Source of the DNA: Oligoflexales bacterium
GTDB lineage: Bacteria; Bdellovibrionota_B; Oligoflexia; Oligoflexales; JAPPIL01
Reading direction: 5' to 3'
Assembly: GCA_965226195.1 (NCBI GenBank)
Contig: OZ245333.1
Span: 2,152,275 to 2,216,274, forward strand
Length of the DNA stretch: 64,000 bases
Translations under genes and position numbers: made by a program
Shown here: positions 25,169 through 54,911 of the stretch, piece after piece
Numbering within the stretch: the stretch's first letter is position 1
How the letters are laid out: each line of letters starts with the position of its first letter
The notes under the pieces: model-generated
What the model saw: only the letters and a program-made list of their open reading frames with translations
What the model was told of the DNA's origin: nothing
The model's database searches: none

Positions 25169-25214
25169 GTTATTGCTTCCAAGTATGCTAACCAACAACA
25201 GTAGGGGGTTACAG

Positions 25215-27368
25215 ATGCAATCATGCAAAATTTTGTCGTTGTTGCTGGTGTTTTATTTGCTTTCTGTGTGTCCTGCATTGGCGCGAGGAGCTGGGGGGTT
25301 GCGAGAGATTGCGCGCAATCCGTTGTTGCGGGGGGTGGCGTTGCCGCGCTACGCTGAGATCAGTCACGAGCATATCAAAGAGGCGATGCAGCACTTGACC
25401 AGCTTGGTGGACGAGAAGATTGCCGCGATCGAGCGTGATGATACAGCAGATTTTGCCTCTCTGTTCAATGCGTTAGGCGAAATCAACATCTACTTCAGCA
25501 GAATTTGGTTGCCGCTCGATCATCTGCATAGGGTGCGTGACGGTGACGATGATAAGTTTCGTCCCTTGCATGAGAAAGCCAAACAGCAGATTGTAGAACT
25601 TGGATTGCGGTTAGCACAGAATCCTGTCATTTACGACAAACTGCTGGCACTGGAGAATGGCACAAGCCTCAATGCCGTGCAGCAGCGCATGGTGCAGCTA
25701 CGCCTTGATAGCGCAAAGCAACTAGGGGTTGGGCTTGAAGGTGGGGCACGGGAGCGTTTCAATGCCATTAGCGAGGAGTTGGCGGCCTTAGGTGTGCGCT
25801 TCACCAACAATAGCCTCGATGCAACGAAAGATTTTCAGCTAATTTTACGTGACAAGAGCGAAACCGCTGGTTTGCCTACAAGTTTTTTAGCGCGTGCCGC
25901 ACAAAACTACACACGGGTGACGGGCGAAGCCGCGACCACAGAGGTGGGGCCATGGCTGGTAACGCTCGATTACCCCAGCTATAAGCCGTTCATGGATTAC
26001 AGCGAGCGTCGTGACCTGCGCGAGAAGGTTTACCGTGCCTTTATCAGTATTGCTGCCCACGAGCCGTTCGATAACACGCCACTCATCAAGCGTATCTTAC
26101 AACTACGCGGGGAACAAACACGGCTGCTCGGTTTTCCCCATCACGCGGCGCGGGTGCTGTCCAACAAGATGGCAGGCAATGTGGCTAACGTCAAGCAATT
26201 GCTCGACGAACTGCATGCAGTTGGCTATCCGAGTTTTATCAAGGAACAAGAGCAGCTCAGTGCCTATGTCGCGGACAACGGCGGCCCCACAGAACTCGCA
26301 CAGTGGGATATGTATTATTGGGAACGCAAGATGAAGGAAGATCAACTCGATCTCGATTCAGAAGCACTGCGTCGTTACTTCCCCTTGCCACGTGTGCTCG
26401 ATGGTCTGTTTGGATTGCTCAACAAGACCTTTGGCATCAGTATCAAAGAAAACACCGCTGAAGTGCAGGTCTGGCATCCCGATGTCAAATTCTATCAAGT
26501 GTATGATGCTGACGGCACGCATATTGCTTCATTCTATTTCGATCCCTACGGTCGGCCGCAAAATAAATCTAGCGGTGCGTGGATGAGCACTTGCAACAGT
26601 CGTCATGTCAGCGGCGGCGGAGTACTAGAAATTCCTGTCTGTAATGTCGTCGCTAATTTTACCTCTCCCACTGCGGACAAGCCTGCTTTGCTCGATATGC
26701 GTGAGGTGGAAACCCTGTTTCACGAATTCGGCCATGCTATGCATGAACTGCTTACCACCGTTGACTACGGTGAAGTTGCTGGTACCGAAGGGGTAGAGTG
26801 GGATGCAGTGGAAATGCCGAGCAATTTTTTAGAAAATTTTATCTATCTCGACCGTGTCATTGCCAGCATCTCTGGTCATATCGAAAGCGGTGAACCTTTG
26901 CCGGCAGAGATGTTGGCGCGTCTGCAGCAACTGAAAAATTTTCGTATCGCTAGCCAGCTACAACGACAACTGTTTTACAGCTATTTCGACTTGCAACTGC
27001 ACAGCGACTTCGATCCCGATACCCAGGATCCGCTTGAGTTGATGCGGCAGCTTCATACGCAGACACTGGGTGTGCCGCCGCTCGATGCTGATCGTTTCCT
27101 CAACAAATTCCGCCATATTTTTGCGGGCGGCTACCATGCTAACTACTACAGCTACAAGTGGGGTGAGTTGCTGGCTGCCGATGCCTTTGAGCTGTTTAAA
27201 GAAAATGGTTTTGATGATGAGGGATTGCAACGCAGCGGGCGCAAGTATCGTGACACCGTGCTGGCCGCGGGTGGTAGCAAACATGCACGAGATATTTTTA
27301 TCGAATTGCGTGGCCGTCTTCCCTCAGCACAAGCGTTGCTCAAAAGTTACGGGCTAGTGGAAGAATGA
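25215..27368 (+). CDS. M3-family oligopeptidase, tandem paralog with signal peptide
   Basis: It has an ATG at 25215 (RBS-like tagggggt), the N-terminus MQSCKILSLLLVFYLLSVCPALA and HEFGHAMH. It is collinear with the upstream paralog along its whole length. Confidence 0.9.
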   Translation: MQSCKILSLLLVFYLLSVCPALARGAGGLREIARNPLLRGVALPRYAEISHEHIKEAMQHLTSLVDEKIAAIERDDTADFASLFNALGEINIYFSRIWLPLDHLHRVRDGDDDKFRPLHEKAKQQIVELGLRLAQNPVIYDKLLALENGTSLNAVQQRMVQLRLDSAKQLGVGLEGGARERFNAISEELAALGVRFTNNSLDATKDFQLILRDKSETAGLPTSFLARAAQNYTRVTGEAATTEVGPWLVTLDYPSYKPFMDYSERRDLREKVYRAFISIAAHEPFDNTPLIKRILQLRGEQTRLLGFPHHAARVLSNKMAGNVANVKQLLDELHAVGYPSFIKEQEQLSAYVADNGGPTELAQWDMYYWERKMKEDQLDLDSEALRRYFPLPRVLDGLFGLLNKTFGISIKENTAEVQVWHPDVKFYQVYDADGTHIASFYFDPYGRPQNKSSGAWMSTCNSRHVSGGGVLEIPVCNVVANFTSPTADKPALLDMREVETLFHEFGHAMHELLTTVDYGEVAGTEGVEWDAVEMPSNFLENFIYLDRVIASISGHIESGEPLPAEMLARLQQLKNFRIASQLQRQLFYSYFDLQLHSDFDPDTQDPLELMRQLHTQTLGVPPLDADRFLNKFRHIFAGGYHANYYSYKWGELLAADAFELFKENGFDDEGLQRSGRKYRDTVLAAGGSKHARDIFIELRGRLPSAQALLKSYGLVEE

Positions 27369-28810
27369 TGAAGCATGATGTGAGAAAAGAACTGTCACGG
27401 CGACGGTTCTTGCATTCGGGAGCCGCGGCGGGTGTGTCAGCGGTAGGACTTGCCTTTTCGGGCTGCCAGCATCTGTTAGCAAAAAAGTCTTCTTCGTGGT
27501 TACCCAACTGCAAGTTTGTCGGCACACCAAATCGCTGGCTCGACCTTCCCGCGGGCTTCAGTTGTCATCCTATCTCGCAGGTTGGTGAGGAGATGGACGA
27601 TGGCTTGTTGGTGCCGGGCCGGCATGATGGCATGGCCGCCTTTGCAGGTACGCACGGGCGGGTAATCCTGCTGCGTAACCACGAACTGTATGCACATGAG
27701 CTGAAGCATGGTGCTTTCGGAACATTCAATATACGTCTGCTCAGCGTTGCTCGTGAAAAACTTTACGATGCGGGACGAGGCCTACTGCCTTGTCTTGGTG
27801 CGGTAACGACAGTGGTTTACAATCCTCGCACGGGCAAGGTAGACAAGCACTTCTTGAGTTTGGCCGGCACGTTGCGCAATTGTTCTGGCGGGCCGACCCC
27901 GTGGGGGACGTGGGTGACTTGTGAAGAAAACGTGCAGCGTGCTGGCATGTTTTTTGAACAGGATCATGGCTACAACTTTGAAGTGCCGGTTGCGTCTGTG
28001 CCACAATTGACAAAGGCTGTGCCGTTGCGAGCGATGGGGCGTTTTAATCACGAAGCGATTGCCGTTGATCCTCACAGCGGTGTTGTTTATCAGACTGAAG
28101 ATCGCAGCGATGGTCTCTTTTATCGCTTTATTCCGACCCACAAAGGCCAGCTTGCCGCGGGCGGTCGTCTGCAGGCGTTGCGAGTGCTCGATCATAAGGG
28201 TGCAGACACACGTAACTGGCCAGCTAAACGTAGGGCGAGAGTTCCACTTGGTAAAGTCATGCCTGTTGCGTGGGTCGATCTTGATGATATCGACGCGCCC
28301 GCTGACGATTTGCGTATGCGTGGTTTTGAGGAAAAGGGTGCGGCACGGTTTGCGCGGGGCGAGGGTATCTGGTGCGATGGCAGGGCTGTTTATTTTGCTT
28401 GCACTAGTGGCGGTTCGCAACAAAAAGGCCAAATTTGGCGTTACGTCCCTAGTCCTGATGAAGGCACGGTGCGTGAACGACGCAAACCCGCGACACTCGA
28501 ACTATTTGTTGAACCTGAAGACAGTAACCTGCTGGAAAACTGCGACAACCTTACCGTTGCTCCGTGGGGCGATCTTATCGTCTGTGAAGATGGTGTTATC
28601 TGTGAAGATGGCACAAAAGAAGAATATCTCATCGGTATCACGCCTAAAGGACAGCTTTATCGCTTTGCCCGCAATGCCCATAACCCTTCAGAGCTCGCAG
28701 GAGCAACTTTCTCACCTGATGGCAGCATATTGTTTGTCAATATCCAAGATCCCGGCATTACCCTTGCCATCACAGGGCCGTGGGACGAAATCAGAAAACG
28801 CACGCTGTAA
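27365..28810 (+). CDS. DUF839 / PhoX-like beta-propeller protein with twin-arginine signal
   Basis: It has a Tat motif (SRRRFLHSGAAAG) and the DUF839 hallmark RNCSGGPTPWGTWVTCEEN. Its start overlaps the upstream stop (ATGATGA). Confidence 0.75.
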   Translation: MMKHDVRKELSRRRFLHSGAAAGVSAVGLAFSGCQHLLAKKSSSWLPNCKFVGTPNRWLDLPAGFSCHPISQVGEEMDDGLLVPGRHDGMAAFAGTHGRVILLRNHELYAHELKHGAFGTFNIRLLSVAREKLYDAGRGLLPCLGAVTTVVYNPRTGKVDKHFLSLAGTLRNCSGGPTPWGTWVTCEENVQRAGMFFEQDHGYNFEVPVASVPQLTKAVPLRAMGRFNHEAIAVDPHSGVVYQTEDRSDGLFYRFIPTHKGQLAAGGRLQALRVLDHKGADTRNWPAKRRARVPLGKVMPVAWVDLDDIDAPADDLRMRGFEEKGAARFARGEGIWCDGRAVYFACTSGGSQQKGQIWRYVPSPDEGTVRERRKPATLELFVEPEDSNLLENCDNLTVAPWGDLIVCEDGVICEDGTKEEYLIGITPKGQLYRFARNAHNPSELAGATFSPDGSILFVNIQDPGITLAITGPWDEIRKRTL

Positions 28811-32866: not shown

Positions 32867-32987
32867 ATGTTTTTTTTCAGCTGCTTCAAGCAGCTGAATG
32901 GGATGAATGCTCTCTGCTTTTTTGTTAGCTTGCTGCAAGTATTTGGAGGCTACAGTGCAAACAGTGCATGTTTGTTTATTTTTTAAC

Positions 32988-33197
32988 CTCCCATGCGTGC
33001 TACGCAAGACTTTTTGCCGCTTACTCGCTCCCCTGCTTGCGCCTCTTGGCAATAAGGATTAGTAGCGTGCCTTCTGGCACGCTACTTGGTCGCAACGCCC
33101 CTCACCCGCAAGGCTCTATAATGTGTTAGTAGCCTCCAAATGTTTTCAGCAGCATCTGAAGCCGAGAGCGTTGATATGGGGTTTGTTTTTGGGTATG
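32988..33197 (+). repeat. R3 repeat module, left flank of the pilin/protease cassette
   Basis: It is a direct copy of 36852..37071. Shared blocks include catgcgtgctacgcaagactttt, cttgcgcctcttggcaata.gg.attag and cttggtcgcaac. It has a perfect 10-bp hairpin gtagcgtgcc-ttct-ggcacgctac and ends in module A (33158..33193). A partial third copy lies at 37330..37400. Confidence 0.75.
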
Positions 33198-33602
33198 CAC
33201 TCCACTTATTTAATAAATATAAAATTTTATTTTTATAATAGCAAAATTTAGATTTTTATTCAAAAATATCAGATACTTATCTAAAAAAGCCAAAAATCAC
33301 TGGCAATTTTTCCACAGGCAATGTGAATAACCTTGTTCGTCGTCGGGATGGTTGCGGTAATGGCAATGCCTTTAGCGGATAGTGCAAAAGGTAGGCAATA
33401 CTTTTATGTCTTCTGCTGGGATATTTTTGTGCGATGGGGTGTGTCGTGTGAGGGATGTTGTTTTCACTCCATGCGCCAAGCAAATATCTAGTCTAATCAG
33501 CTGAAGTTTTTGCAAAAATCTGAAAATGCTAAAGCAAAATAAGAAAACGGTCGATCGCGTTAATGGGCGTAAGTTTGTAATATTTGCAGTGTAGGAACTA
33601 CT

Positions 33603-35528
33603 GTGGGCAAAAAATCCGCATTTAGCTTGGTCGAGCTGATGGTCGCGGTCGGCATCGTTGGCATTTTGGTAACGATAGCCTTTCCGCGTTATCAGCAGTT
33701 CATGGTGAACTCACGCCGCGGTGAGGCGAAGAGCAATCTGTCGCATCTGAGTTCTTTGCAAAGTGCCTACAGGATCGACTACTACGCATACTATAACGGC
33801 GACACGATGACCTCAAACAATGGTATCGGCTATCAGGATGGGCATGGTAATCCTGGTCGCTGCGATGTCCCCAGCGATGACAGTGACTATGGTTTGGGCA
33901 ACTATCTTGGCTTCCAACCTGAGGCATGTGATAAGCTACGCTACTTCTACCAGCTGCGCGACTCTGGAGAGACTGTGGTCGCTTCCGCGGCATCCAATGC
34001 CAAAGGGTTCTGGATCTACCCCGACTGTCATGGTGGTGGCCCAGTTGAGTACGGCTACCCCAGCGGCGATGCAGTGAGCATGTCTGTGCGCGACAACAAG
34101 CTGGTGGTGCGGCGCAATATCACCAAGTACTGCCCTGAGGCATCGACGGGGATTATCAATCAGCCACCGTGTGTGTGCACCAACTGGCGGCCAAACGGCG
34201 GCTGGCAACCGCCGCAAAGCAGTCGTACTGTGTGCCAGCCACTTCCACAAACCAGGTCTCTGACAAGAACCTGCAGCGGCTACTGTCCCACCTCTCTCAC
34301 CACCTCCGATACAGAAACACGCAATGTCAACGGCAGCAATCCCGTTACCGCAAGCACATCTTTATCGGATGCGCCATGCAACTGCGACCCTGCCTTTTCT
34401 CCTGATACGAGAACTGCTTGTATTGGTGTCACGCCGTGCACCTGCGCATCTGATACTCTAACTGCCTGGACTCCCGCGGTAACTACAGCACAACAAGCAG
34501 CAATGTATACATGTGAGTGCACTGAGCAAACACAGGACAAAACTAGCTGGACTTGCCCTGTTCCCCCCACATGCCTCTCCAGCACGATAAGCCCATTTGA
34601 AACAAGGAAAGTCTGGGGAGGTAAAGACCCTGGCGATGAGAGTGACACTAGCATCTGCGGTGCGTGGAGCGGGTGGGGTGCAGAGGACGGAGGTGTGTGG
34701 ACAGCCGGTGATTGGGGTTCGTGCGTGGCGACTAGCCCTGGGGTATGTGAACAGCAGCAAACCCAAACCCGCACCTGCACCAGCCCCTGTACGGATACCA
34801 ACCCAAATGCCTGTACTTATTTCCCCATTACCTATCAGACACTCCAGTCTCGCTCGCGACCATGCGGCTGTACTGATCCAACACTAAGATGCAGTCCTGC
34901 ATCGTCTTTCAGTGCGGATGTGAAGATTGGTGTTGCAGAGCGTAGCTGCGACATGCAAGGCGGTATCTTCGGCACAACTCTTAGCGACCCACCCGACTGT
35001 AGTTGTACGGATAGGTGTGAGGTCAGTTCGCCTTATTGTCCCGAATGCACAGTTGACTACGCAGAAATGCGTTGTGATGGAGAGGGCACGTTTAGTAAGA
35101 CGAGAGATAACCCACTTACCAAGCCCTATGCGTTCAACTGTACCTGCACGCCAGCTGTGCAGACGGGAACGTTTATTTTGTATAAATCGTGTGTAGCAGA
35201 CTCTTATCAAGCTGCTCTCGCCAGCAGAAACGGTTTGTTGGCTAATGCAGATACCAAGAGTTGTACCAATGGTGGTACAACTATTGATAACTGCAGCTGC
35301 ATGGAAATCACAGCAATTGAGGAGAGTTTGAGAGAAAAAGCTGCTAGCGGGGCTACTGACGCTGCTGACGCTGCTGATTTCCTAACTGACATCAAAAGTG
35401 AGATGCTAAATCGCAATATGGTAGCAGGGTGTCACAAAGATGTTACCACTGGTGATCAGGGTGGTACCCCTTGCGGTTTTGCGCCCGCGAACTGCTGTGA
35501 TGTTACAAACTTTCTGGGAGGGAACTAA
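33603..35528 (+). CDS. Giant type IV pilin-like protein (641 aa) with Cys-rich, thrombospondin-type-1-like C-terminal region
   Basis: It has a GTG start and the prepilin N-terminus MGKKSA/FSLVELMVAVGIVGILVTIAFPRYQQF (Phe+1, Glu+5). I count 44 Cys by hand. It carries W..W...C...QTRTC..C motif blocks. Confidence 0.7.
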   Translation: MGKKSAFSLVELMVAVGIVGILVTIAFPRYQQFMVNSRRGEAKSNLSHLSSLQSAYRIDYYAYYNGDTMTSNNGIGYQDGHGNPGRCDVPSDDSDYGLGNYLGFQPEACDKLRYFYQLRDSGETVVASAASNAKGFWIYPDCHGGGPVEYGYPSGDAVSMSVRDNKLVVRRNITKYCPEASTGIINQPPCVCTNWRPNGGWQPPQSSRTVCQPLPQTRSLTRTCSGYCPTSLTTSDTETRNVNGSNPVTASTSLSDAPCNCDPAFSPDTRTACIGVTPCTCASDTLTAWTPAVTTAQQAAMYTCECTEQTQDKTSWTCPVPPTCLSSTISPFETRKVWGGKDPGDESDTSICGAWSGWGAEDGGVWTAGDWGSCVATSPGVCEQQQTQTRTCTSPCTDTNPNACTYFPITYQTLQSRSRPCGCTDPTLRCSPASSFSADVKIGVAERSCDMQGGIFGTTLSDPPDCSCTDRCEVSSPYCPECTVDYAEMRCDGEGTFSKTRDNPLTKPYAFNCTCTPAVQTGTFILYKSCVADSYQAALASRNGLLANADTKSCTNGGTTIDNCSCMEITAIEESLREKAASGATDAADAADFLTDIKSEMLNRNMVAGCHKDVTTGDQGGTPCGFAPANCCDVTNFLGGN

Positions 35529-35529
35529 G

Positions 35530-36645
35530 ATGAAACTGCTGCTTATTGCACCCCTGGTGTTGCTGGCATCCTGTATCCTGCGCCCGCAAGCCGCGCAAAA
35601 AAAATTCATAACCTTTCACCATGAGTTCAGGAAGGGTTTCACCATCCTGATCGATAAAGTGCATGCCCCGCACTGGGACATCAGTTATGGCTATGGCGAT
35701 GACTGCCCGCCAGAGGAACGGAACAACGACGCGGCATTGACCGCCGCGATCAGCAAAGCTTTGCGGACGTGGTTACAACCGCTGCGCAACTACACCGCCA
35801 AGCCGATCGTTGCCGATTTCCGCTACCAGCTGGCTGCTGATCCTTTCCGCGCCGCCGCCGACCTGTGGGTCATCTTTCACTGCGAGCATAATAATTCCAC
35901 TGCGCATACGGGAGGAAATACTCCCGGCATCAATCTGCGCGATGGCACGAAAGTGGTGTGGCACTTTATAGATGCCCTCGTCCATGAAAGTGGCCATGTT
36001 TTCGGTCTGGCTGACACCTACATCCGGTGGGCGGATCGGCATAAGCCGGGGCTCAGCCAGGGTGGCTTAGCACTGACCAAGGGCACACAACCTGCTGCGG
36101 TGATGAGCGCGCTGATGCCCGTCTTTCCAGCTGCGGCTGCGCACGACCCTGTCGCACTCGATGGTCTTGAAGACCTCGGTGTAGACGACATTAACGGCAT
36201 TATCTGGCTCTACAAGCATGTCCACGAACAGCTGCCGCTGGAAGACTGTTTTTTTCCCAACTATGAGTTGGAGGACACACCGCACGGCTGCCGTCCCAAA
36301 TATCCGCTGATCTTTGAAATCAAGCAGGGGGATGAGTATTGGTCAATCAAGGTGATTAAGGATGACCGCAACTTAGACATCAATGCTCAAGATAAGGATG
36401 ACCTGACTGCCCTGCACCACGCGGTGTTGAACGGTTTTGAGGAGTTGGTCGCCAAACTCATCGAGCATAAGGGCATCAAGCCGTTTCTCAAGAACAAAGA
36501 CGGACACACACCGCTAGATCTTGCCAACGAACTCAAACGGGAACGTATCGCGGCACTCATCGCTGCCCATCCTAAAGCTATGTCTGTCAACGCCAAAGGC
36601 AAAAAGCCAGTCACCTGGGGTGAGTTGAAAAGAGGGGATCACTAA
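35530..36645 (+). CDS. Lipoprotein zinc metalloprotease (HExxHxxGxxD metzincin-like) with C-terminal ankyrin repeats
   Basis: It has an ATG at 35530, 2 nt after the pilin stop, and a lipobox in MKLLLIAPLVLLASC. The zinc motif is LVHESGHVFGLADTY. Ankyrin repeats are DINAQDKDDLTALHHAVLNGFEELVAKLIEHKGI and NKDGHTPLDLANELKRERIAALI. Confidence 0.7.
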   Translation: MKLLLIAPLVLLASCILRPQAAQKKFITFHHEFRKGFTILIDKVHAPHWDISYGYGDDCPPEERNNDAALTAAISKALRTWLQPLRNYTAKPIVADFRYQLAADPFRAAADLWVIFHCEHNNSTAHTGGNTPGINLRDGTKVVWHFIDALVHESGHVFGLADTYIRWADRHKPGLSQGGLALTKGTQPAAVMSALMPVFPAAAAHDPVALDGLEDLGVDDINGIIWLYKHVHEQLPLEDCFFPNYELEDTPHGCRPKYPLIFEIKQGDEYWSIKVIKDDRNLDINAQDKDDLTALHHAVLNGFEELVAKLIEHKGIKPFLKNKDGHTPLDLANELKRERIAALIAAHPKAMSVNAKGKKPVTWGELKRGDH

Positions 36646-36726
36646 GTTTTTGTCATCTGCTTGCGCATTTTGTTTTTGTCATCTGCTTGTCGCATTTTGT
36701 TTTTGTCATCTGCTTGCGCAGATGAC
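36646..36726 (+). repeat. Tandem 26/27-bp repeat x3 whose last unit closes into a 9-bp hairpin
   Basis: The unit gtttttgtcatctgcttgcgcatttt occurs at 36646..36671, 36672..36698 and 36699... The hairpin is gtcatctgc-ttgc-gcagatgac (36704..36726). The array lies immediately 3' of the metalloprotease stop. Confidence 0.85.
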
Positions 36727-36851
36727 TGTGTCTATTGCTCACTACGCTCGCATGGCTTTTTGCCTCTTTCTCGCTCCCTGCTTTTTGTAAGTTTTCGATG
36801 TCGAGTGTAATCGGCTTATGGTGGCAGACATAGCATTATATTTAATGCGTA

Positions 36852-37290
36852 TCCCTCATGCGTGCTACGCAAGACTTTTGTCGCTTGCTAGCTCCCTTGC
36901 TTGCGCCTCTTGGCAATAGGGGATTAGCAGCGGGGCCTTCTGGCACACTGCTTGGTCGCAACAACCCTAGCCCGCAAAGATAGGCATAGGTGTTTGCAGC
37001 CCAGAATTATTTTTGGCAGCATCCAAAGCCGCGAGCTTTGTACGGGGTTTGGTTTGGGGGCTCACACATCGTCGCTAGAGCTAGAAAGCGAACAAAGAGT
37101 CGAGCGAAGCTGGCTAAGCGCTCCTCATCATGCCCGCCTCGCCCTTATCTGACTCACATTAGTTATTTATTCGGCAAATGGCAGACATTCCCTAGTCAGC
37201 ACTATACTTGAGCACATGAAGCGAGCGAGAAAGCGAGCGTTATAAAAAGTGGCGTAGCGAGGTTTAGTTTTGGGTATGGGGACAGTGTTA
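36852..37290 (+). repeat. R3 module (direct copy of 32988..33197) followed by the R6 module
   Basis: 36852..37071 aligns with 32988..33197. About 37020..37290 aligns with the reverse complement of about 60490..60770. Shared blocks there include ggcagacattccctag.cagcactat, aagcgag and gcgttataaaaag.ggcgtagcgag. Confidence 0.7.
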
Positions 37291-37531
37291 GGTGCTGGTA
37301 AAAGTGCCGGATAGTGCATGATTATTTATTCATTTCTCTCGTGCGTGCTACACAAACCTTTTGTCGCTTGCTTGCGCCTCTTGGCAATAAGGATTAGTAG
37401 CGTGCCTCTGATGATTAGAGGCATGGGCGGCGCGTTGCTTTTTAATAACCAGCCAGCAATGCTACATTTGTTAGCCAAGCATGCCTGCCTCGTGTTAGAA
37501 TAACTACACAAGCAGCACGCACGAGGCTAGC

Positions 37532-38612
37532 ATGACGAAGCGGCAACAACGTATCGTGCGTAAACAACGCCGCAAGCCCAACAAAGCTCGCCAATCTTAC
37601 CCCCCACGACAGCCTTTTCAAGAAAGTTTTCAAACGCCCTGAATACTGTCGTTCTTTGTTACAAGTTCTGCTCAGACCCAGCTTCTATGTCATCTTCGAC
37701 TGGTCGTTGCTGAAAATTAGTGAGAGCATAACGACAGGAGCGAAGGGGGAGGAGCGCAGAGCTGACATCGTGCTGGAAGTGCCCTTGTTGAACTCGAAAT
37801 TCCGTGTCATCATCACGATAATCTTGGAGCACAAGAGCTACCGCGACAACAATGCCATCCTTCAGATGCTGGGTTACTACAACGAGATCGCACAGGAAAC
37901 GGGTGGCATAATTCTTCCAATAATTGTAACCTGTTGCAAGGATAAACAGGCATCTATCTCTTCCGACTACCTCAGCTGGGCACTGCAACAACAAGGTGCG
38001 CCCGAAGAGTTGAAGAAGCAGTTCAGGAATTTGCCCAATTTTCACTGTCTAGTAGTGAACTTACACGACCTGTCCTATCGTCGCATGCGGCGAGGAGGCG
38101 AGGCGGTAAGTTTGGCACTATTCGGGATGCGTAACTACTGGGACATGGACGAAGAGGTAGTGGTTAAGATTCTTGAAAAGGCACACCTTCTGCCGCAGCA
38201 GGAGAGGGAATTTGTGTTGAGTGTGCTAATGGATTACTATGAATGTGCCGATAAAGGGTATGGCAGGAAGTGGTTTGCAAGAGTTGAGCGCAAACGGTTT
38301 CCACATCTTAAGGAGGAGGAGAGACTAGTGCCGACGATGGAATTTGGCTTTGACAGGGCGAAGCAACAAGGCATGCGGCAAGGCATGCGCAAGGGCAAGC
38401 AACTCGGCATCGAGCGGGGCAAGCAACTCGGCATCGAGCGGGGCAAGCAACTCGGCATCGAGCGGGGCAAGCAACTCGGCATCGAGCAGGGCAAGCTGGA
38501 AATGGTTAAGCGTTTCTTGCAGGCTGGGTTCGATGAGCAGGACATCTGTAAGGCCGCGCAGCTCTCAAAACAGCAGTTGACACAGATTAAGCGCAATCTC
38601 AATCAGGATTAG
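37532..38612 (+). pseudogene. Rpn (YhgA-like) PD-(D/E)XK recombination-promoting nuclease, N-terminus out of frame at a C6 tract
   Basis: The ORF track starts at TTG 37656. The same frame upstream encodes the canonical Rpn N-terminal motif HDSLFKKVFKRPEY with no start codon. An ATG at 37532 (MTKRQQRIVRKQRRKPNKARQSY) is in another frame and joins if the C6 run at 37600..37605 loses one C. The core motif is RADIVLEV...IITIILEHKS. Confidence 0.7.
38394..38489 (+). repeat. Perfect in-frame tandem repeat, 24 bp x4, inside the Rpn gene
   Basis: The unit ggcaagcaactcggcatcgagcgg occurs four times, with gcag in the last unit. It encodes GKQLGIER x3 plus GKQLGIEQ and is preceded by a degenerate KQQGMRQGMRK. 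Confidence 0.95.
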
Positions 38613-40300: not shown

Positions 40301-40870
40301 TTGGCAAAAAATATAATTTTAGTTGGAGAATCTGGTGCAGGTAAATCTAGTGTTGCGCCTTTATTGGCACATTTGCTGGGTTATGGGGTGGTCGATACCG
40401 ATGCCTGCATCGTGCGTGAGCAGCAGCAAAAAATTGCCGCGCTGTTCTTGCTCCATGGCGAGGAACACTTCCGTGAACTGGAGGTAAAGCTGCTCGATGA
40501 ACTGAGCGGAGTCAAGCACTGCGTCATCGCCACTGGCGGTGGTTTGCCCTGTCACAGTGATAACTGGCTCAAGTTGGCATACATGGGCGTGACCGTGCAT
40601 CTGACTGCCACGCCGCGGGGCATCTGCCAGCGTCTGCTGTCCGATCGGGAGCTGTTGAAGGACAGTCCCCTGTTGAGTCCCGCGCTTGAGGGCAGCAGCG
40701 ACGAAGAAATTCTGTTAAAATTAATGGATAGGGTGGAAAAAACTCGTGCCGTGCGTTCAGAATTTTTTGCAAAAGCCGACATAACTATCGACAGTGGTGG
40801 CTCGACGATCGAGTTTTGTGCACTGATGGTCAAAAGTGCAATTGCACAGAGGCGTGATGCAGGCAGATAA
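40301..40870 (+). CDS. aroK: Shikimate kinase
   Basis: It has a TTG start, the P-loop LVGESGAGKSSV, DTDACIVREQQQKIAALF and VIATGGG. Confidence 0.85.
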   Translation: MAKNIILVGESGAGKSSVAPLLAHLLGYGVVDTDACIVREQQQKIAALFLLHGEEHFRELEVKLLDELSGVKHCVIATGGGLPCHSDNWLKLAYMGVTVHLTATPRGICQRLLSDRELLKDSPLLSPALEGSSDEEILLKLMDRVEKTRAVRSEFFAKADITIDSGGSTIEFCALMVKSAIAQRRDAGR

Positions 40871-41813
40871 AAGTTTTGAAAAACTCAAAAACCTGCCTTG
40901 GAAGGCACTTGCATGGGTAGTTGGCAGTAGTTTCGTGTGTGCGACCGCACTGTCGATGAGTGCCGCGTGGTTGTTTTTTCCTGAAGCAAAAAGCCGCAGC
41001 AACAATGCCGCGGGCAACTTCGCCCTACAGGAGAACACCCAGAGCCTGAACAACGATGACGTGAACAAAATTATGCAGCGTAACCTCTTTCAGGCTGAGG
41101 GGCTTGATACTTTCGGTGAAGGCAAGGACGGTAACAATGCACCAGTGGCAGAGGTAATCAAGTCAAATTTGCCGCTGAAGTTGACAGGCACAATCTACTC
41201 TGGCGACCCGCTGAACGGCATCGCTATTGTTGAATTCACAGGTAAGAAGAGCAAGACGGGCAGTTTCATGAACGGCGATCTGGTTGTCGGGCGAGCGATG
41301 CTGAAGGAAGTCCACAAGGAGAAGATAATTCTCGATAACGGCGGGCAGCTGGAATACATCGAGATCGACCAGAAGGAACTGGTCAGGACACGGCGCAAAG
41401 TCTCGAAGCAGCGTGCCAAACACAAGTACACAGCGATAACCACCGCACCCGCGGCGAAGGAGTTCCGTGAGGAGGGCTTTGAGCGCACGGGTGGCGATAT
41501 CAACATGTCCAAAGACTACAAGACACGGCTGCTGGGGCCTGACTTCACTAAAGTCTTACAGGATGCCAAAGCTTCTCCCAACATCGTCGGGGGCAAGTTG
41601 CGTGGTTTCCAGCTCAGCCGTATTCGTGAAAATTCTATCTACCAGAAATCAGGCTTGCAAAACGGCGATGTCGTGGAGGAGATCAACGGTATTTTGCTGA
41701 CCGATACTGCGCAGGCGATCAAGCTGTTGAATTCGCTGCGCAACGAGTCGGAGATTGAGATACGAATAGTGCGTGGCGGTAAACCGATAAACTTCGTCAT
41801 TAATGTGCAGTGA
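40857..41813 (+). CDS. gspC: Type II secretion system protein GspC (TM anchor, HR domain, PDZ)
   Basis: It has a TM helix (ALAWVVGSSFVCATALSMSAAWLFF), an HR-like block (LKLTGTIYSGDPLNGIAIVEF...VVGRAMLKEVHKEKIILDNGGQLEYIEI) and a PDZ domain (GLQNGDVVEEINGILL). Its start overlaps the aroK end. Confidence 0.75.
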   Translation: MQADKSFEKLKNLPWKALAWVVGSSFVCATALSMSAAWLFFPEAKSRSNNAAGNFALQENTQSLNNDDVNKIMQRNLFQAEGLDTFGEGKDGNNAPVAEVIKSNLPLKLTGTIYSGDPLNGIAIVEFTGKKSKTGSFMNGDLVVGRAMLKEVHKEKIILDNGGQLEYIEIDQKELVRTRRKVSKQRAKHKYTAITTAPAAKEFREEGFERTGGDINMSKDYKTRLLGPDFTKVLQDAKASPNIVGGKLRGFQLSRIRENSIYQKSGLQNGDVVEEINGILLTDTAQAIKLLNSLRNESEIEIRIVRGGKPINFVINVQ

Positions 41814-42769
41814 ACATCGACTTGAAAAAAATTCGCAATTGGTTTTCGGGCGAACGCCTTAAGGTGCTGGTGCGGTTATTTTTTACCGTGTTGGCTGCGT
41901 GGCTCGTGGCGACAATCTTTGCCTCGTTAAGCGCACATTTTCTAATGGGTAAAGGTTTCTTTAGCGGCCGGGCATCGGGACACAGCAAGAACAGCGCACA
42001 GGTAGATATGGCGAAGAAACTCAACTACCGCGATGTGCGCAAGGCAGTGCTCAAACGCAATATCTTCAACTCGACGGGCGAAGTTCCCGACCAAAAGGAA
42101 CTTGCCGACGACGCAGCACAGGAGCGAACACTAGCAGGGCAGTGCAATAAGCCCACGCTTAAGGTCAAGGTAGTGGGCACGATCTATCTCGGCGGCGATA
42201 ATTCGGTCGTTTCGGTGCGGGAGGCAAGTTATTCACAGTCCGATACCTATCGTGTCGGTGACAAAATTATCGGCTACGAAGACGTGAGGATTGTCGCAAT
42301 CGAGCGTGAGCAGATGATCGTCGATAACGGTGGTAGCCGCGAGTGTTACAAAATCGAAAAATCAGCTAAGGTTGCCAGTCGCACTACAGGTTTTAAGCCC
42401 AACCAGAAGAAAGCCAAGTCTAAAGAGAGCAGCGGGGGCGGCAGCGGCGGAGCGATAGCACTTGACAGTGCTTGGGTTGAGGCACAGCTGGGGCCTGGTT
42501 TTAGTCAGGTACTCAAGTCGGCAAGACTTGTCCCCAACCTCGACGGCGAAAGTATTAATGGGTTCAAGATATTTGCCATCAAAAAGGGCACGCTGTTCAA
42601 TAAAATCGGCTTGCAGAACGGCGATATTATCCAGAAGGTCAACGATACTAGTTTGGAGCAAGCTGAGCATGGTTTTGCCCTGTATCAGACATTTCAGGAA
42701 GATCAGGAGATTGTTTTCAACATTATGCGTAAAAATAAACCGCAAACGATCAGTGTCGTGATAAAATGA
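41810..42769 (+). CDS. Second GspC-like protein (TM anchor, HR domain, PDZ), tandem paralog
   Basis: It has the same architecture: LKVKVVGTIYLGGDNSVVSV...IVAIEREQMIVDNGGSRECYKIE and a PDZ domain (GLQNGDIIQKVNDTSL). Its GTG start overlaps the upstream stop. Confidence 0.7.
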   Translation: MNIDLKKIRNWFSGERLKVLVRLFFTVLAAWLVATIFASLSAHFLMGKGFFSGRASGHSKNSAQVDMAKKLNYRDVRKAVLKRNIFNSTGEVPDQKELADDAAQERTLAGQCNKPTLKVKVVGTIYLGGDNSVVSVREASYSQSDTYRVGDKIIGYEDVRIVAIEREQMIVDNGGSRECYKIEKSAKVASRTTGFKPNQKKAKSKESSGGGSGGAIALDSAWVEAQLGPGFSQVLKSARLVPNLDGESINGFKIFAIKKGTLFNKIGLQNGDIIQKVNDTSLEQAEHGFALYQTFQEDQEIVFNIMRKNKPQTISVVIK

Positions 42770-42775
42770 CGGGGG

Positions 42776-45193
42776 GTGAGTGGCTTTATGATAATTACTA
42801 GATTTTTTTTAGCAGCACTGTTGTTGTTCGTTCCTTGTGCGCAGCTCTATGCCGAAGAGCCGCCGATGGCAACGGTCGAAATCGAAGACGATGGCGAGCC
42901 ACGCGGGGCTGAGGCGCTGCCGCAGGGTGAAGATCTGGTCAACATCGATTTTCCAGAACCAACCGAAATCAAGGACATCATCAAGGCGGTAGCACTCTGG
43001 ACTGGCAAAAACGTCATCCTCGATCGGCAGGTGACGGGCAAAGTGCAGATCATCTCGCCGCGCAAGGTTACGAAAGAAGAAGCTTACCAAGCTTTCCTGT
43101 CAGCGTTGAACATTCTTGGCTTGACCACCGTCGAGACGGGACGGGTAATCAAGATTATGCCCATTCGCACCGCGGTGAAGGGCAATCTAAAGACCTATCT
43201 CGGTGCAAAATGGACACCACGCACCGATGAAATAATTACCCAGATGGTGCCGCTGCGCTACATCAACGCCAAGAGTATCCAGACCACGCTGTCGCGCATC
43301 GTCTCGTCCAACTCAATGGTTGCCTACGAGCCAACCAACACCTTGATTATCAGCGACACTGGCTACAAAGTGCGGCGGGTGCTAGACATCGTCAACCTGC
43401 TCGACGTGCAGACACAACAGCCGCGGCTAGAGATTATTCCGATACGTTTTTCCGATGCCAAATCGGTAGCAGAAAAAGTGCGCCAGTTGGTGACAGGCTC
43501 GTCACGCAGCAAACGACTGCGCAGATCTAGCTCGCAAGAATACAAAATTCTCGTCGATGAACGTTCCAACTCGGTAATTATTTTCGGCCCGCCCCGCACG
43601 ATCAAAGACGTGAAGGAAATGGTCAAGAAATTCGACATCGAACTAGACGATCCTTCGCGGCAAGCAACAATTCACGTGCGCCCGCTCGATTATGCTGATG
43701 CCAAAATACTGGCGGGCACATTGTCGGCGCTGACAGGACGAAGCAGGCGGTCAACACGCCGCGTACCGAGCAAGACTCGCACTTCGCTGGCAGTAGTGGC
43801 ACAACTCGACGATAACGTCAAAATTACTGCTTACGAGCCGTCTAATTCCCTGCTGATTACTGGTAGCCGGAGCGCATATCAGGCACTGAACTCCATTATC
43901 CGCAAACTCGACATGCGCCGCAGCCAAGTCTATGTCGAAGCCGACATTCTCGACATCAACATTGAGGACTCGCTCGTCGCGGGCATGAGCATCTTCGGTG
44001 GAGTCGGCAAGAGCGAAGGTACAAAAATCATCGGCACGTGGGAAGGAGCGGGAGCAACCAGCCTTGCCATTGGCGGAGCATTGGCAAATAGCAGTGGTGA
44101 AGAAGGCACTGCCGCGCTGGGCGAACTGGCCAAGCTGAAAGACACCTTCTCTAAAAACCTGACCATCGGCATCCTGTCAGGCACAAAGGTCAACGTGCCG
44201 GGCTTGGGTGAGATTTCACCAGCAGCACTGATAAGCTTGATCAAAAGCGATGCCAATACCAAAATTCTCGCGACACCGCAGATTCTTACCTCTAACAACG
44301 AAGTTGCTAAGATCAGCAGTGGTGAGACACGCTTGTTCACCACGACCAGTACTAATCCTGTGACAGGGGCTGATGTACAAAAACTTGAAAAAGAAAATGC
44401 CAACCTCAGTCTCAAGATCAAACCAAATATCAGCCACTCCAACTACGTGACCCTAAAGATCGATCTCGAAGCTAACACCTTCGGCACACGCATTTCCCAG
44501 CAAGGTTTGCCTAACATCAACAAACGCCAAACCTCGCAGCTGGTGACAGTTAAAAACGGCCAAACCGTCGTTATCTCTGGGCTTATGAAAACCCGCGAGA
44601 TCGAAACTTTCCAAAAAGTGCCGCTGTTTGGCGACATTCCAGTTATTGGTTGGTTATTTCGCAACAGCACTTTGAACAACGTCAAGACCAGATTGGTAAT
44701 TTTTCTCAAGCCACACATCGTGCATAATGCAGGAGATCTGGCGGAAATTTATCGCCGCAAAATCAAGGAGCGTGATATTTTTCTTGACTCTGTCGGCGAA
44801 GATACCGATCCTGATGGTGATTTCTACTCACTGCTGCCAAGACTTGAGGAAGGCGAGTATCATTCCGATACAGTAGACGAGATGGAACGGCGTAAGCTGG
44901 AGGAGATGCGGCGTGAGCTGTATGAGATAATTCGGGACGAAAGCAACAGCGGTTATCCCTTGCGCTTAGCACCAGAAGAACCGCAAGTTGTTGAGCCACC
45001 AGTTGTTGAGCCACCAGAAGAACCACCAGTTGTTGAACCGCAAGTTGTTGAGCCACCAGCTGAGCCAGCAGCAGAGGAAGATGACACAGCAACTGAGGCT
45101 GAAGATAAAAACGAGGCAGAGAAAGCACCAGCAGGTGCGGCTGCTGCGACAGGCACAGATGATACTAAGCCGCAGACGCGGCCCGTGCCATAA
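42776..45193 (+). CDS. gspD: Type II secretion system secretin GspD with a Pro/Glu-rich C-terminal tail
   Basis: It has N0-N3-like repeats and the secretin hallmark KVPLFGDIPVIGWLFR. The tail reads EEPQVVEPPVVEPPEEPPVVEPQVVEPPAEPAAEEDD. Confidence 0.95.
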   Translation: MSGFMIITRFFLAALLLFVPCAQLYAEEPPMATVEIEDDGEPRGAEALPQGEDLVNIDFPEPTEIKDIIKAVALWTGKNVILDRQVTGKVQIISPRKVTKEEAYQAFLSALNILGLTTVETGRVIKIMPIRTAVKGNLKTYLGAKWTPRTDEIITQMVPLRYINAKSIQTTLSRIVSSNSMVAYEPTNTLIISDTGYKVRRVLDIVNLLDVQTQQPRLEIIPIRFSDAKSVAEKVRQLVTGSSRSKRLRRSSSQEYKILVDERSNSVIIFGPPRTIKDVKEMVKKFDIELDDPSRQATIHVRPLDYADAKILAGTLSALTGRSRRSTRRVPSKTRTSLAVVAQLDDNVKITAYEPSNSLLITGSRSAYQALNSIIRKLDMRRSQVYVEADILDINIEDSLVAGMSIFGGVGKSEGTKIIGTWEGAGATSLAIGGALANSSGEEGTAALGELAKLKDTFSKNLTIGILSGTKVNVPGLGEISPAALISLIKSDANTKILATPQILTSNNEVAKISSGETRLFTTTSTNPVTGADVQKLEKENANLSLKIKPNISHSNYVTLKIDLEANTFGTRISQQGLPNINKRQTSQLVTVKNGQTVVISGLMKTREIETFQKVPLFGDIPVIGWLFRNSTLNNVKTRLVIFLKPHIVHNAGDLAEIYRRKIKERDIFLDSVGEDTDPDGDFYSLLPRLEEGEYHSDTVDEMERRKLEEMRRELYEIIRDESNSGYPLRLAPEEPQVVEPPVVEPPEEPPVVEPQVVEPPAEPAAEEDDTATEAEDKNEAEKAPAGAAAATGTDDTKPQTRPVP

Positions 45194-45210
45194 AGTTAGG
45201 GAGGAGAGCT

Positions 45211-47070: not shown

Positions 47071-47089
47071 TTAATTTTTTTCAGCTGTT

Positions 47090-47332
47090 TTTCAACAGAC
47101 TCTAAAGCCGCGAACTTAGATACGGTGGTTTGGGGTAGAGAGATAGAACGTCAGGAAGCTACATCCCCGAACCACCATTTGGGGAAGGGATAAAGAGGGT
47201 ACAGTTGGGGGCTTCACCCCCACCCCCCCCACCAACTTTTAGTAAGTTAGGGGCTGAAAACGAGACTTTGGTCTAGGTTTCTCCCTTAAAATCTCCCCAT
47301 TTGGGGAAAGATGGGAACGGTCAGGAACAAAC
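47090..47332. repeat. Mosaic repeat filling the gspE-gspF spacer
   Basis: It contains module A at 47104..47137, gttgggggcttcaccccc (also at 50467..50484) and aggggctgaaaacgagactttggtct.ggtttctccc, which is the reverse complement of the 21750..21800 hairpin block. Confidence 0.7.
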
Positions 47333-48550
47333 ATGGTTCTTTATACCTACAAAGGCTATGATGGAAAGACAGGTGCATCTAAAAAAGGCACAATCGATGC
47401 TGACACACCTCGTGCGGCACGCGTTCGCCTGCGTCAACGTGACAAAATAATCATTTCCGAACTAAAAGAAACAGTCCCCGACCAAAAAAAATCCCGCTCG
47501 GCACTGTTTGTCAAACGCGTCTCACTACTCGACCTGTCGATCATGACACGACAATTTGCTACCCTGCAAAACGCCCAAGTGCCACTAGACGAATGCCTGT
47601 CCGCTCTCACATCGCAAGTCGATAACCTCGAACTGCGCAATACCTTGTCGTCATTGAAAGACAGCATTTCCGAAGGTAAATCACTAGCCGAAGCACTGTC
47701 AGCCTACCCACGCATCTTCAACCGCCTCTACATCAACATGGTGCAAGCAGGCGAGACCTCAGGCAAACTAGGACTAGTGCTCGAACGACTAGCAGACCAC
47801 CAAGAATACCAAGTTGCCATCAAAGGCAAAGTCTTCAGCGCCCTATCATACCCAGCCATCATGATCGTCGCTTCGCTGGCAATTATCGCCTACCTGTTCA
47901 TCAGCGTCGTACCAGGCCTGCAAAAAGTCTTCAACAGCCTCAAAGTCACACTGCCCTGGTACACCGAAAAACTCATTGCTTTCTCAGAATTCCTGCAAGA
48001 ACGCTGGTTGCTACTCATAATCGTCGTCGTCGTACTCTTCTTTGTGCTAAGAAAATGGGCTAAATCAGAGAAAGGCGGACATAGAGTCGATCTCTGGGCA
48101 CTGACATTACCCATTTTTGGCTCGTTGATTGTCAGAATCAACGTGTCTAAGTTTACCAAAACACTATCGACTCTGCTTAATTCAGGCGTGCCCATCATTG
48201 CGGCAATAGAAATTACCAAAAATACCATCTCCAACAGCGTAATCGCAGGTGTGCTCGAAGAGGCCAAAACCTCCGTGCAAGAAGGCGATAGTCTTGGCAA
48301 CTGTATCGAACGCAGTAAACACTTCCCGCCACTAGTCACCCACATGATCCGCACAGGTGAAAAGACAGGCGACCTCGAAGGAATGTTGACACACGTGGCC
48401 AAAGCATACGATACAGAGGTGGAACGCAAAATCGAGTCGATGATCTCGTTGATCGAACCAATGATGATAATTGTAATGGCAGGCGTGGCCAGCGTGGTGA
48501 TTGTCGCCTTGCTTGTGCCCATGCTGTCTGTAATGAGTTCTGTGCGCTAA
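47333..48550 (+). CDS. gspF: Type II secretion inner-membrane platform protein GspF
   Basis: The 405-aa protein has two GspF-type cytoplasmic domains and 3 TM segments. Confidence 0.95.
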   Translation: MVLYTYKGYDGKTGASKKGTIDADTPRAARVRLRQRDKIIISELKETVPDQKKSRSALFVKRVSLLDLSIMTRQFATLQNAQVPLDECLSALTSQVDNLELRNTLSSLKDSISEGKSLAEALSAYPRIFNRLYINMVQAGETSGKLGLVLERLADHQEYQVAIKGKVFSALSYPAIMIVASLAIIAYLFISVVPGLQKVFNSLKVTLPWYTEKLIAFSEFLQERWLLLIIVVVVLFFVLRKWAKSEKGGHRVDLWALTLPIFGSLIVRINVSKFTKTLSTLLNSGVPIIAAIEITKNTISNSVIAGVLEEAKTSVQEGDSLGNCIERSKHFPPLVTHMIRTGEKTGDLEGMLTHVAKAYDTEVERKIESMISLIEPMMIIVMAGVASVVIVALLVPMLSVMSSVR

Positions 48551-48568
48551 CAAAGGAGATTCGCAGTT

Positions 48569-50397: not shown

Positions 50398-50398
50398 C

Positions 50399-52605: not shown

Positions 52606-52612
52606 GGCAAGT

Positions 52613-54262: not shown

Positions 54263-54265
54263 ACG

Positions 54266-54907: not shown

Positions 54908-54911
54908 GCTG

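Follow-up and report, generated by a model that had tools for sequence, protein, structure and literature searches.

A cysteine-rich modular type IVa pilin with thrombospondin-repeat-like modules, paired with a metzincin-like ankyrin lipoprotein in a multicopy Oligoflexales cassette

Introduction

Modular pilins, in which adhesive modules are grafted onto a type IV pilin, are an established concept (Raynaud et al. 2021, PMC8179133), exemplified by Streptococcus sanguinis PilB with its von Willebrand factor A (vWA) module, S. sanguinis PilC with its lectin module and CofB of enterotoxigenic Escherichia coli (ETEC), and such subunits have been noted as likely tip-exposed (PMC8179133). They currently serve to explain how simple type IV filaments acquire new functions. 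Here we describe a member of this kind, encoded within a 64,000-nucleotide stretch of an Oligoflexales bacterium genome (assembly GCA_965226195.1, contig OZ245333.1, positions 2,152,275 to 2,216,274; hereafter the window). The gene, at 33603..35528 on the plus strand, starts with GTG and encodes a 641-residue protein with 44 Cys that falls under the modular-pilin definition: a pilin module (aa 7-182) is followed by a 460-residue extension with independent repeated modules. Its disulfide-rich extension, its pairing with a metzincin-ankyrin partner gene and the presence of at least 11 such gene pairs in one genome argue that it is probably a diversifying adhesin displayed on a pilus rather than an ordinary pilin.

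Like the described modular pilins, the window pilin combines a class III signal and a pilin module with a linker and a grafted extracellular module expected to bind ligands, is far larger than a standard pilin, and carries a grafted module that resembles a eukaryotic adhesion domain. It differs from them in that a full type IVa module of PilA-like (major-pilin-like) character, about 175 residues long, serves as carrier, in that the extension, with 40 Cys and repeated modules resembling thrombospondin type-1 repeats (TSRs), lies outside the architectures of the published survey (PMC8179133), and in that the family is multicopy, with a homogenised 5' block, a constant metzincin-ankyrin partner and no adjacent assembly genes. 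Myxococcus xanthus PilA (Protein Data Bank (PDB) entry 8tj2), one of the delta-proteobacterial type IVa major pilins, likewise has a leader of 6-7 residues, Phe or Leu at +1, Glu at +5 and a large globular head with disulfides; however, its 208 residues end after the head domain, whereas the window pilin continues for 460 residues, and it departs from the window family at position -1, where half of the family has Ala. Neisseria pilE/pilS resembles the window family in the many pilin copies per genome, each with a conserved N-terminal and a variable C-terminal part, and the sharply bounded, near-identical DNA block found here is compatible with gene conversion. In the window family, however, each copy is complete with its own promoter, leader and partner instead of being a silent partial cassette, the variable part is the whole multi-domain extension and not the loops of the pilin head, and recombination is read from sequence patterns. 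What is known, then, is the modular type IV pilin as a kind; new are an extension that is both cysteine-rich and TSR-like, a metzincin-ankyrin partner that is obligate, a multicopy architecture of conserved carrier and variable cargo, and the lineage. Our literature searches found no description of pilins with thrombospondin-like repeats or of Oligoflexales pilin cassettes.

Results

The window gene encodes a giant pilin with a prepilin N-terminus

The reading frame follows an in-frame stop at 33570, after which the GTG is the first start, with AGGA 8-11 nucleotides (nt) ahead of it, and an independent short-read assembly (L001) codes for an identical protein. The exact count of 44 Cys in 641 residues agrees with a preliminary description of the window; the protein further contains 10 Trp, and T, S, G, A, C and P are abundant in it. 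The prepilin N-terminus proposed in that description is also confirmed. The protein begins with MGKKSA followed by FSLVELMVAVGIVGILVTIAFPRY, and this end is matched above cut-off both by Pfam N_methyl (PF07963; 24.5 bits against a gathering score of 21.2) and by NCBIfam IV_pilin_GFxxxE (TIGR02532; 20.7 bits against 16.3). The leader MGKKSA (33603..33620, plus strand), whose six residues are a type IVa length, is predicted to be removed by a prepilin peptidase after Ala-1, leaving Phe+1 and Glu+5. The class III signal is thus canonical except for Ala rather than Gly at -1, a residue tolerated by Pseudomonas aeruginosa PilD. Of 35 pilin relatives, 18 have Gly and 17 have Ala at -1, 26 have Phe and 9 have Leu at +1, and 28 have a leader of the type IVa length of 6-7 residues.

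Alignment of the upstream regions of 14 loci delimits a putative 5' untranslated or promoter region of the cassette (33500..33602, plus strand). Within it, a block at about 33507-33557, in which TTTTTGCAA, GCTAAAGCAAAA and ACGGTCGATCG follow one another at intervals, has aligned counterparts ahead of relatives in two further genomes. A sigma-54 promoter was considered but is not proposed, as only a near-match to TGG-N9-TTGT was seen by eye and the conserved upstream block is spaced differently between genomes. An Rfam search of the window returned 0 matches.

The carrier is a self-sufficient type IVa pilin module

A search of 5.8 billion proteins recovered 38 pilin relatives, none of them named by its source, which, apart from one 499-residue fragment, are 581-1049 residues long. 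Five are full-length orthologs (41-52% identity across 94-100% of the window pilin); the remainder have only the first ~180 residues in common with it (55-69% identity), followed by other cysteine-rich extensions, and contain 36-95 Cys. Pfam and NCBIfam searches with the whole pilin and 36 relatives matched the N-terminus only, and no Pfam domain was found past the N-terminus (N_methyl, ComP_DUS) in the 38 pilins. In a scan of one genome per species, relatives were placed on two complete chromosomes of metagenome-assembled genomes (MAGs) labelled Oligoflexales, with 2 pilin loci on OY282434.1 (2.84 Mb) and 11 dispersed loci on OZ244057.1 (2.18 Mb).

The pilin module (mature aa 7-182; 33621..34148, plus strand) consists of the hydrophobic α1 helix and a globular head with four Cys (C87, C109, C142 and C177), and it is 55-70% identical across the family. 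Searched against all PDB sequences, a profile of 15 modules (aa 1-182) found M. xanthus PilA as its closest match (E 8.8e-13, aligned to residue 88), followed by geopilin and the type IVa pilins of P. aeruginosa and Neisseria, with GspG far weaker at E 1.7e-4, which shows that the carrier is of the type IVa PilA kind and not a pseudopilin of a type II secretion system (T2SS). Past residue 90 the head has no sequence match in this search, and its AlphaFold2 model is of low confidence. Two further cysteines, C150 and C170, occur jointly in 33 proteins and are jointly missing from three, the window pilin among them, and so behave as a disulfide pair. Relatives that consist of the pilin module only (177-228 residues; P0164-P0168) also exist, indicating that the pilin is self-sufficient and that the extension was added to it as a separable part. 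In the extension itself, 25 of the 40 Cys positions are invariant in the ortholog alignment (44-51% identity), as opposed to 60 of the 419 positions of other residues, the pattern expected of structural disulfides; the very large pilin with a disulfide-type extracellular extension that had been proposed is thus real and conserved.

The extension carries a repeated module and a lineage-specific C-terminal domain

An iterated hidden Markov model (HMM) identified 45 copies of a Trp/Arg/Cys module of ~50 residues in 31 proteins. Because circularity had to be avoided, the scoring HMM was rebuilt from 28 modules of 22 paralogs with the window's ortholog group left out; the top score among 1000 composition-matched shuffles was 7.8 bits. 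With this model, the first block of the window pilin (aa 188-233, PPCVCTNWRPNGGWQPPQSSRTVCQPLPQTRSLTRTCSGYCPTSLT; 34164..34301, plus strand) scores 16.8 bits and the third, TSR-like block (aa 351-404, ICGAWSGWGAEDGGVWTAGDWGSCVATSPGVCEQQQTQTRTCTSPCTDTNPNAC; 34653..34814, plus strand) 23.9 bits over aa 351-401. By contrast, the second block (aa 277-329; 34431..34589, plus strand), with a CxC...W...CxC...C...C layout, reaches only -3.0 bits, which is not significant; its counterpart in the ortholog P0005 reads QTRTRTRIC (independent E-value 2.4e-5), and block 2 of the window pilin is a degenerate or different module. Three motif blocks had been described here beforehand. Their coordinates hold (block 1 at nt 34182-34286, block 3 at nt 34656-34790), and blocks 1 and 3 prove to be copies of one module, whereas block 2 does not.

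At the junction between pilin module and extension only CRNITKYCP is conserved, and a variable linker follows. The opposite end is formed by an alpha/beta C-terminal domain (aa 420-641; 34860..35525, plus strand) with about 17 Cys, ending in CCDVTNF, which is common only to the ortholog group and a few paralogs in the ortholog alignment. This domain matched no PDB sequence at E <= 10 and no Pfam family, and it is the sole part of the full-length AlphaFold2 model with a predicted local distance difference test score (pLDDT) of 50-73. An exhaustive HMMER search of 1.84 billion representative proteins with a profile of the extension (aa 183-641) gave only 10 matches at E <= 0.001, and the named proteins among these are members of the pilin family.

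The modules resemble thrombospondin type-1 repeats

The blocks had been likened to TSRs in the preliminary description. TSRs (Pfam TSP_1, PF00090; 1LSL, properdin, F-spondin and TRAP) share with the module a WxxW(xxW) strand, a Cys, a (Q/R)TRxRxC strand and xNPC, together with a Cys two residues ahead of the first Trp, which is where group-2 TSRs have it. They differ from the window family, which has no CSxTCG turn, a shorter third strand and another number and spacing of cysteines. We aligned eight PDB-verified repeats, namely THBS1 TSR1, THBS1 TSR2-3 (100% identical to 1LSL) and properdin TSR1-5, and compared them by hhalign with an alignment of 19 modules of the family. The two align with a probability of 95.9% and a score of 40.9 over 30 columns, a region that comprises the W..W..C strand and the TRxRxC..P strand, whereas the top score in 60 column shuffles of either alignment (120 controls) is 17.8 (probability 13.9%); a reversed TSR profile scores 23.1 (probability 55%). 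Block 3, taken from the window's ortholog group only, matches the TSRs with 88.9% and a score of 31.9 (control maximum 14.3), while block 1 attains 13.8%, no better than the controls, and block 2 0.3%. Real TSRs receive -3.8 to 17.9 bits from the module HMMs, and with the iterated HMM five of the eight real TSRs exceed the 99th percentile of 2000 shuffled TSRs. Several paralog modules have a canonical TSR look: CGDWGSWSDWSECKLRSSGNYEEQRTRTKSCPNPCP, CCNPWSSWSSWTPPRSNTCSTNLVHQTRTRTRSC and WSSWSSW...QTRTRTRSC. Judged from these alignments, the module has the Trp-strand/Arg-strand signature of TSRs in common with them well beyond chance.

Curated domain models and structure predictions give less. 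Pfam TSP1 models matched neither the window pilin (E <= 10) nor 36 relatives (E <= 1), and the window modules in isolation matched nothing in Pfam. TSP1_CFP_C does match two isolated paralog modules, with E-values of 0.0026 and 0.011 and scores of 18.6 and 16.6 bits that stay under the cut-off of 27, and TSP1_spondin matches one of the two as well, at E 1.5; the sole sub-threshold Pfam matches of the modules are thus of thrombospondin type. A module profile has a single match in the PDB, to THSD7A at E 9.5. The AlphaFold2 model of the full-length pilin, computed with six orthologs, has a pLDDT of 35.7, which makes a Foldseek search of that model meaningless. Block 3 modelled separately (aa 336-416; 25 module sequences) reaches 59.1, and a Foldseek search of 350,542 chains with this model returned nothing significant (best E 0.7; template modelling (TM) scores 0.25-0.37); the top of its list is nevertheless enriched in TSR folds, the first 22 matches including pleiotrophin, BAI1 TSR3, Sema5A TSR3-4, F-spondin TSR1, properdin and UNC5D. 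Pleiotrophin is made of two TSR-like domains.

It is quite possible, though on balance we doubt it, that the Trp/Arg/Cys blocks do not adopt a TSR fold and instead form a lineage-specific cysteine-knot-like or irregular disulfide stalk, which would have come to look like TSRs by convergence or composition. Such a stalk would agree with the want of any Pfam TSP1 family at cut-off in 36 proteins and in the isolated modules, with a PDB profile match no better than E 9.5, with a module model whose strands (pLDDT 59) do not clearly follow the three-strand TSR layout and whose Foldseek matches stop at E 0.7 and TM 0.25-0.37, with the 55% that a reversed TSR profile still obtains, and with a cysteine spacing unlike that of TSRs, in which CSxTCG is missing and the tail after NPC is short. 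It is harder to reconcile with an hhalign score of 40.9 where 120 column-shuffled controls stay at or below 18, with weak matches in three independent libraries that are all of TSR type, or with paralog modules such as CGDWGSWSDWSECKLRSSGNYEEQRTRTKSCPNPCP and WSSWSSW...QTRTRTRSC that read like textbook TSRs. We therefore describe the modules as TSR-like in sequence, while the curated Pfam test does not place them in the TSR family. The resemblance put forward beforehand accordingly stands at least for block 3, which exceeds chance in hhalign, and falls short in the missing Pfam TSP_1 match and the low-confidence structures. Nor is a recently borrowed eukaryote-type module shown: the exhaustive HMMER search of 1.84 billion proteins with the extension returned no recognisable eukaryotic TSR protein, and with no such sequence trail a recent acquisition from a host is unsupported.

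The pilin gene is paired with a metzincin-like ankyrin lipoprotein gene

The pilin gene had been regarded as stand-alone, yet it is the first gene of a conserved two-gene cassette. Its stop codon (35526-35528) is separated by 1 nt from the start of a partner gene (35530..36645, plus strand; gene call on the identical contig L001), which encodes a 371-residue lipoprotein with a metzincin-like domain and C-terminal ankyrin repeats. At each of the 16 loci examined (13 on OY282434.1 and OZ244057.1, the window, L015 and L020), the partner immediately follows the pilin in the same orientation, including L020, where it adjoins a 214-residue pilin-only relative. A consensus scan predicts a terminator-like hairpin after the partner gene (36705..36726, plus strand) and none between the two genes, which are probably translationally coupled.

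The partner starts with a lipobox, LASC (LLASC; 35563..35574, plus strand), whose Cys15 is invariant in alignments of 14 and 9 partners, and is predicted to be lipidated. Downstream of a zinc-binding motif, HESGHVFGLAD (HExxHxxGxxD; 35983..36015, plus strand), which does not vary in 14 of 14 partners, come GTQPxxxMS (Met192) and DDINGIIWLY; in their general forms HExGHxFGLxDTY, GTQPxSxMS (M192) and DDxxGIxWLY, the three elements are invariant in 14 of 14 and 9 of 9 partners. The partner thus bears the motif that defines metzincins, HExxHxxGxx(H/D) with a conserved Met-turn, and is by this token a candidate member. HExxHxxGxxD with Asp as third ligand is the snapalysin variant, and DDxxGIxxLY ends the catalytic domains of matrix metalloproteinases; the partner shares the former with snapalysin (M7) and the latter with the matrixins (M10), and it too has a downstream conserved Met. 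Unlike either, it is fused to a lipoprotein signal, to ankyrin repeats (aa 273-347; 36346..36570, plus strand; Pfam Ank_2 at E 5.6e-9, Ank_4 and Ank_5; PDB ankyrins at E 1e-20) and to a conserved tail, KGKxxTWGELK. Against the PDB, a profile of the ~255-residue domain finds snapalysin (E 0.0075) and matrilysin (0.04), and further archaemetzincin, stromelysin-3, ADAMTS-5 and serralysin; nearly all matches are metzincins and all are weak, and the domain has no match in Pfam, its peptidase models included.

The partner family comprises at least 311 proteins, and among the matches listed (the best 120) all have E < 1e-87. Pilin-free members, single or arranged in tandem, are found in 5-6-Mb genomes and in a MAG labelled Poribacteria that derives from a sponge metagenome, so the family is an independent unit that the Oligoflexales have coupled to pilins. 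The arrays in the 5-6-Mb genomes contain at least four tandem genes, and the 'Candidatus Poribacteria' MAG has a single partner-family gene with no pilin nearby; the loci concerned are L018 6001-10626, L019 1-13209 and L016 8001-9164. Two partner paralogs on OZ244057.1 (L006 8760-10451 and L008 8786-10423) carry an extra pair of dockerin-like DxDGxG repeats and a C-terminal domain that resembles a sorting domain of the type IX secretion system (T9SS)/FlgD type, a hint that partners are surface-exposed or secreted.

Cassette copies share a homogenised 5' block and diversify beyond it

The pilin-partner pair in the window is one copy of a mobile, multicopy Oligoflexales cassette, of which OZ244057.1 holds at least 11 copies in 2.18 Mb. 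The DNA of these 11 copies is 91-100% identical from ~150 nt before the mature N-terminus (91-97% in the upstream ~150 nt) to about +520, the end of the pilin module, past which identity falls within ~60 nt to ~45%. Protein identity among the 11 paralogs has a median of 95% in the pilin module (range 90-100%), 34% in the extension (25-88%) and 48% in the partner catalytic domain (34-93%). Since the divergence of the partners shows the duplications to be old, the near-identity of the 5' block, its non-coding part included, is best explained by gene conversion or repeated recombination, with a possible contribution of selection for compatibility with one filament. A second giant pilin (C-terminal 507 residues, from ...NITKYCP; L015 1-1524), with its own partner (P0158, 45% identical to the window partner), comes from the same sample as the window genome, which therefore has at least two cassettes.

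Broken copies are found as well: L011 9836-12528 is split into three open reading frames (ORFs), L004 5027-5920 is a C-terminal fragment, P0173 is truncated, and L007 2347-2715 is a fragmented or truncated pilin or partner copy beside intact cassettes on OZ244057.1. Their position near intact cassettes points to birth-and-death turnover. The window cassette itself is bracketed by a direct repeat of ~230 nt, with an upstream copy at 32970..33200 and a downstream copy at 36835..37065 (both plus strand; about 80% identical) and a partial third copy at ~37300-37410; the 20-mer GCGTGCTACGCAAGACTTTT occurs within the 64 kb only at 32995, 36860 and 37343 (3 mismatches), with 0 occurrences expected by chance. 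This repeat, which was not found at the other cassette loci, could be a remnant of tandem cassettes or a recombination site. At 37656-38612 (plus strand) lies a gene resembling Rpn-family recombination-promoting nucleases/transposases (TIGR01784 at E 2.7e-7 and Transposase_31 at E 9e-4, both below cut-off), which holds an internal 24-nt tandem repeat at 38370-38496. Rpn-like ORFs also neighbour the cassettes of L002, L007 and L011-L013, and in L022 the short pilin is followed by an Rpn C-terminal fragment.

The strict pairing could also be understood in another way, with the pilin N-terminus serving only as an inner-membrane anchor or export handle and the partner metalloprotease freeing the extension as a secreted or surface effector. 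The coupling of a partner with a protease motif even to a 214-residue pilin-module-only relative, the bulk of a 460-1000-residue extension on a filament subunit, and the complete T2SS 5 kb away would all suit such an arrangement. However, a full-sized module with 4-6 conserved Cys and 90-100% protein identity among paralogs fits filament packing better, and no conserved cleavage motif was identified at the module/extension junction; moreover, pili are known to take up modular pilins as large as 50 kDa (PMC8179133). We consider release from a mere anchor unlikely.

Genomic context

The complete T2SS (gspC, C, D, E, F, G, H, I, J, K, L, N) occupies 40836-55856, starting 5.3 kb downstream. In keeping with the preliminary description, it is the sole fibre machinery in the window, and no pil genes (pilB/C/M-Q) or prepilin peptidase gene were found within the 64 kb; nor are annotated pil genes present at the loci of the short pilin relatives P0184 and P0168. 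Given its type IVa PilA character, the pilin module probably has nothing to do with the nearby T2SS. That the window pilin is a pseudopilin or accessory subunit of this T2SS, an idea encouraged by the absence of other fibre machinery and by an NCBIfam GspG match to the N-terminus (E 1.4e-5), is very improbable: the GspG match is confined to the N-terminus and its 25.2 bits fall far below the cut-off of 88.85, the T2SS cluster already includes a GspG, H, I, J and K, unrelated genes (Rpn-like, metallo-beta-lactamase-fold and aroK) lie in between, the module profile prefers type IVa pilins over GspG by nine orders of magnitude, and elsewhere the cassettes are dispersed at 11 or more sites that are not beside T2SS genes. 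A decaying or non-functional ORF, as which some paralogs do appear (fragmented in L011 and L004, truncated in P0173), is for the window gene practically ruled out by an intact frame, identical on the independent assembly L001, and by full-length orthologs with preferential conservation of Cys.

The T2SS cluster opens with two tandem gspC paralogs (40836-42769; 325 and 319 residues), both just under the GspC_delta cut-off. The N-terminal domain of its GspE (45211-47070) is of the cyclic-di-GMP-binding MshE type (NF053729, 48.5 bits; cut-off 38), and a 549-residue protein with a PilM/FtsA-like actin-fold N-terminus occupies the GspL position (52613-54262). Directly after the cluster, on the opposite strand, a 1236-residue ORF (55961-59671, minus strand) contains no Cys and has no Pfam or NCBIfam match. 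Elsewhere the window contains ccm genes, PrkA/DUF444/SpoVR, tRNA synthetases, a heptosyltransferase-family gene and a Kdo transferase gene; two tandem M3 oligopeptidase genes (711 and 737 residues) followed by a PhoX-type alkaline phosphatase gene (23033-28810); and a gene for a 582-residue ankyrin-repeat protein (8486-10234, minus strand) that has a hydrophobic segment at its N-terminus, lacks HExxH and is no relative of the partner family.

Discussion

We judge it on balance likely that the window gene encodes a modular type IVa pilin acting as a pilus-displayed adhesin together with its co-expressed partner. In the mechanism we propose, the six-residue leader would be cut by a prepilin peptidase encoded elsewhere in the genome, and the PilA-like module (aa 7-182) would insert its hydrophobic helix into a type IVa pilus or cap it. 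The pilus would thereby display the 460-residue, disulfide-locked extension as an adhesin, composed of a short linker, a stalk with at least two TSR-like Trp/Arg/Cys modules and a lineage-specific C-terminal head domain; the modules may serve as a rigid stalk or as a glycan- or matrix-binding element, and the variable head may give specificity. The pilin would be co-transcribed with the partner, an outer-membrane-type lipoprotein with a snapalysin/matrixin-like zinc-protease motif and ankyrin repeats, which might act on the bound substrate or process the pilin. With promoter and pilin module kept near-identical, by gene conversion or by the fit to one assembly machine, while extension and partner diversify, the cassettes would amount to a repertoire of pilus-presented adhesins for the surfaces of eukaryotic (marine invertebrate) hosts or of prey.

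Several points weigh against this account. The window pilin has Ala and not Gly at residue -1. No TSP1 model exceeds its threshold in the window pilin or in any relative; the TSR alignment covers the Trp and Arg strands only, ~30 columns, and leaves the third strand unaligned; block 2 is no significant module copy, and block 1 alone is not TSR-like. The AlphaFold2 models are poor (pLDDT 35.7 and 59.1) and yield no significant structural match. The divergence of the extension is not correlated with that of the partner (Spearman 0.20, p 0.14; 11 paralogs). With neither pil genes nor a prepilin peptidase in the window, assembly is not tied to a machine. The partner family also occurs pilin-free in other phyla, and its function is not pilin-dependent in general. 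An association with hosts, finally, is suggested by partner relatives in sponge metagenomes and not by this genome.

A bolder version of the adhesin account, which we hold to be doubtful, would have animal-associated Oligoflexales carry a dozen or more complete expression cassettes per genome, in which gene conversion would homogenise one promoter and one filament-compatible pilin module and true bacterial TSR stalks would bear distinct disulfide-rich heads, each with its own metzincin-ankyrin enzyme. If this were true, a bacterial surface fibre would possess the TSR fold natively, and the system would be a bacterial counterpart of the TSR adhesins of apicomplexan parasites.

The window family extends the modular-pilin idea by a large cysteine-rich repeat extension, an obligate protease/ankyrin partner and a homogenised carrier with diversified cargo. 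The partners form an uncharacterised, expanded family and are candidate symbiosis factors in their own right. Should the modules be true TSRs, they would represent a rare bacterial use of a fold regarded as eukaryotic extracellular-matrix hardware, and would point to how little-known relatives within the Bdellovibrionota attach to animal hosts or prey.

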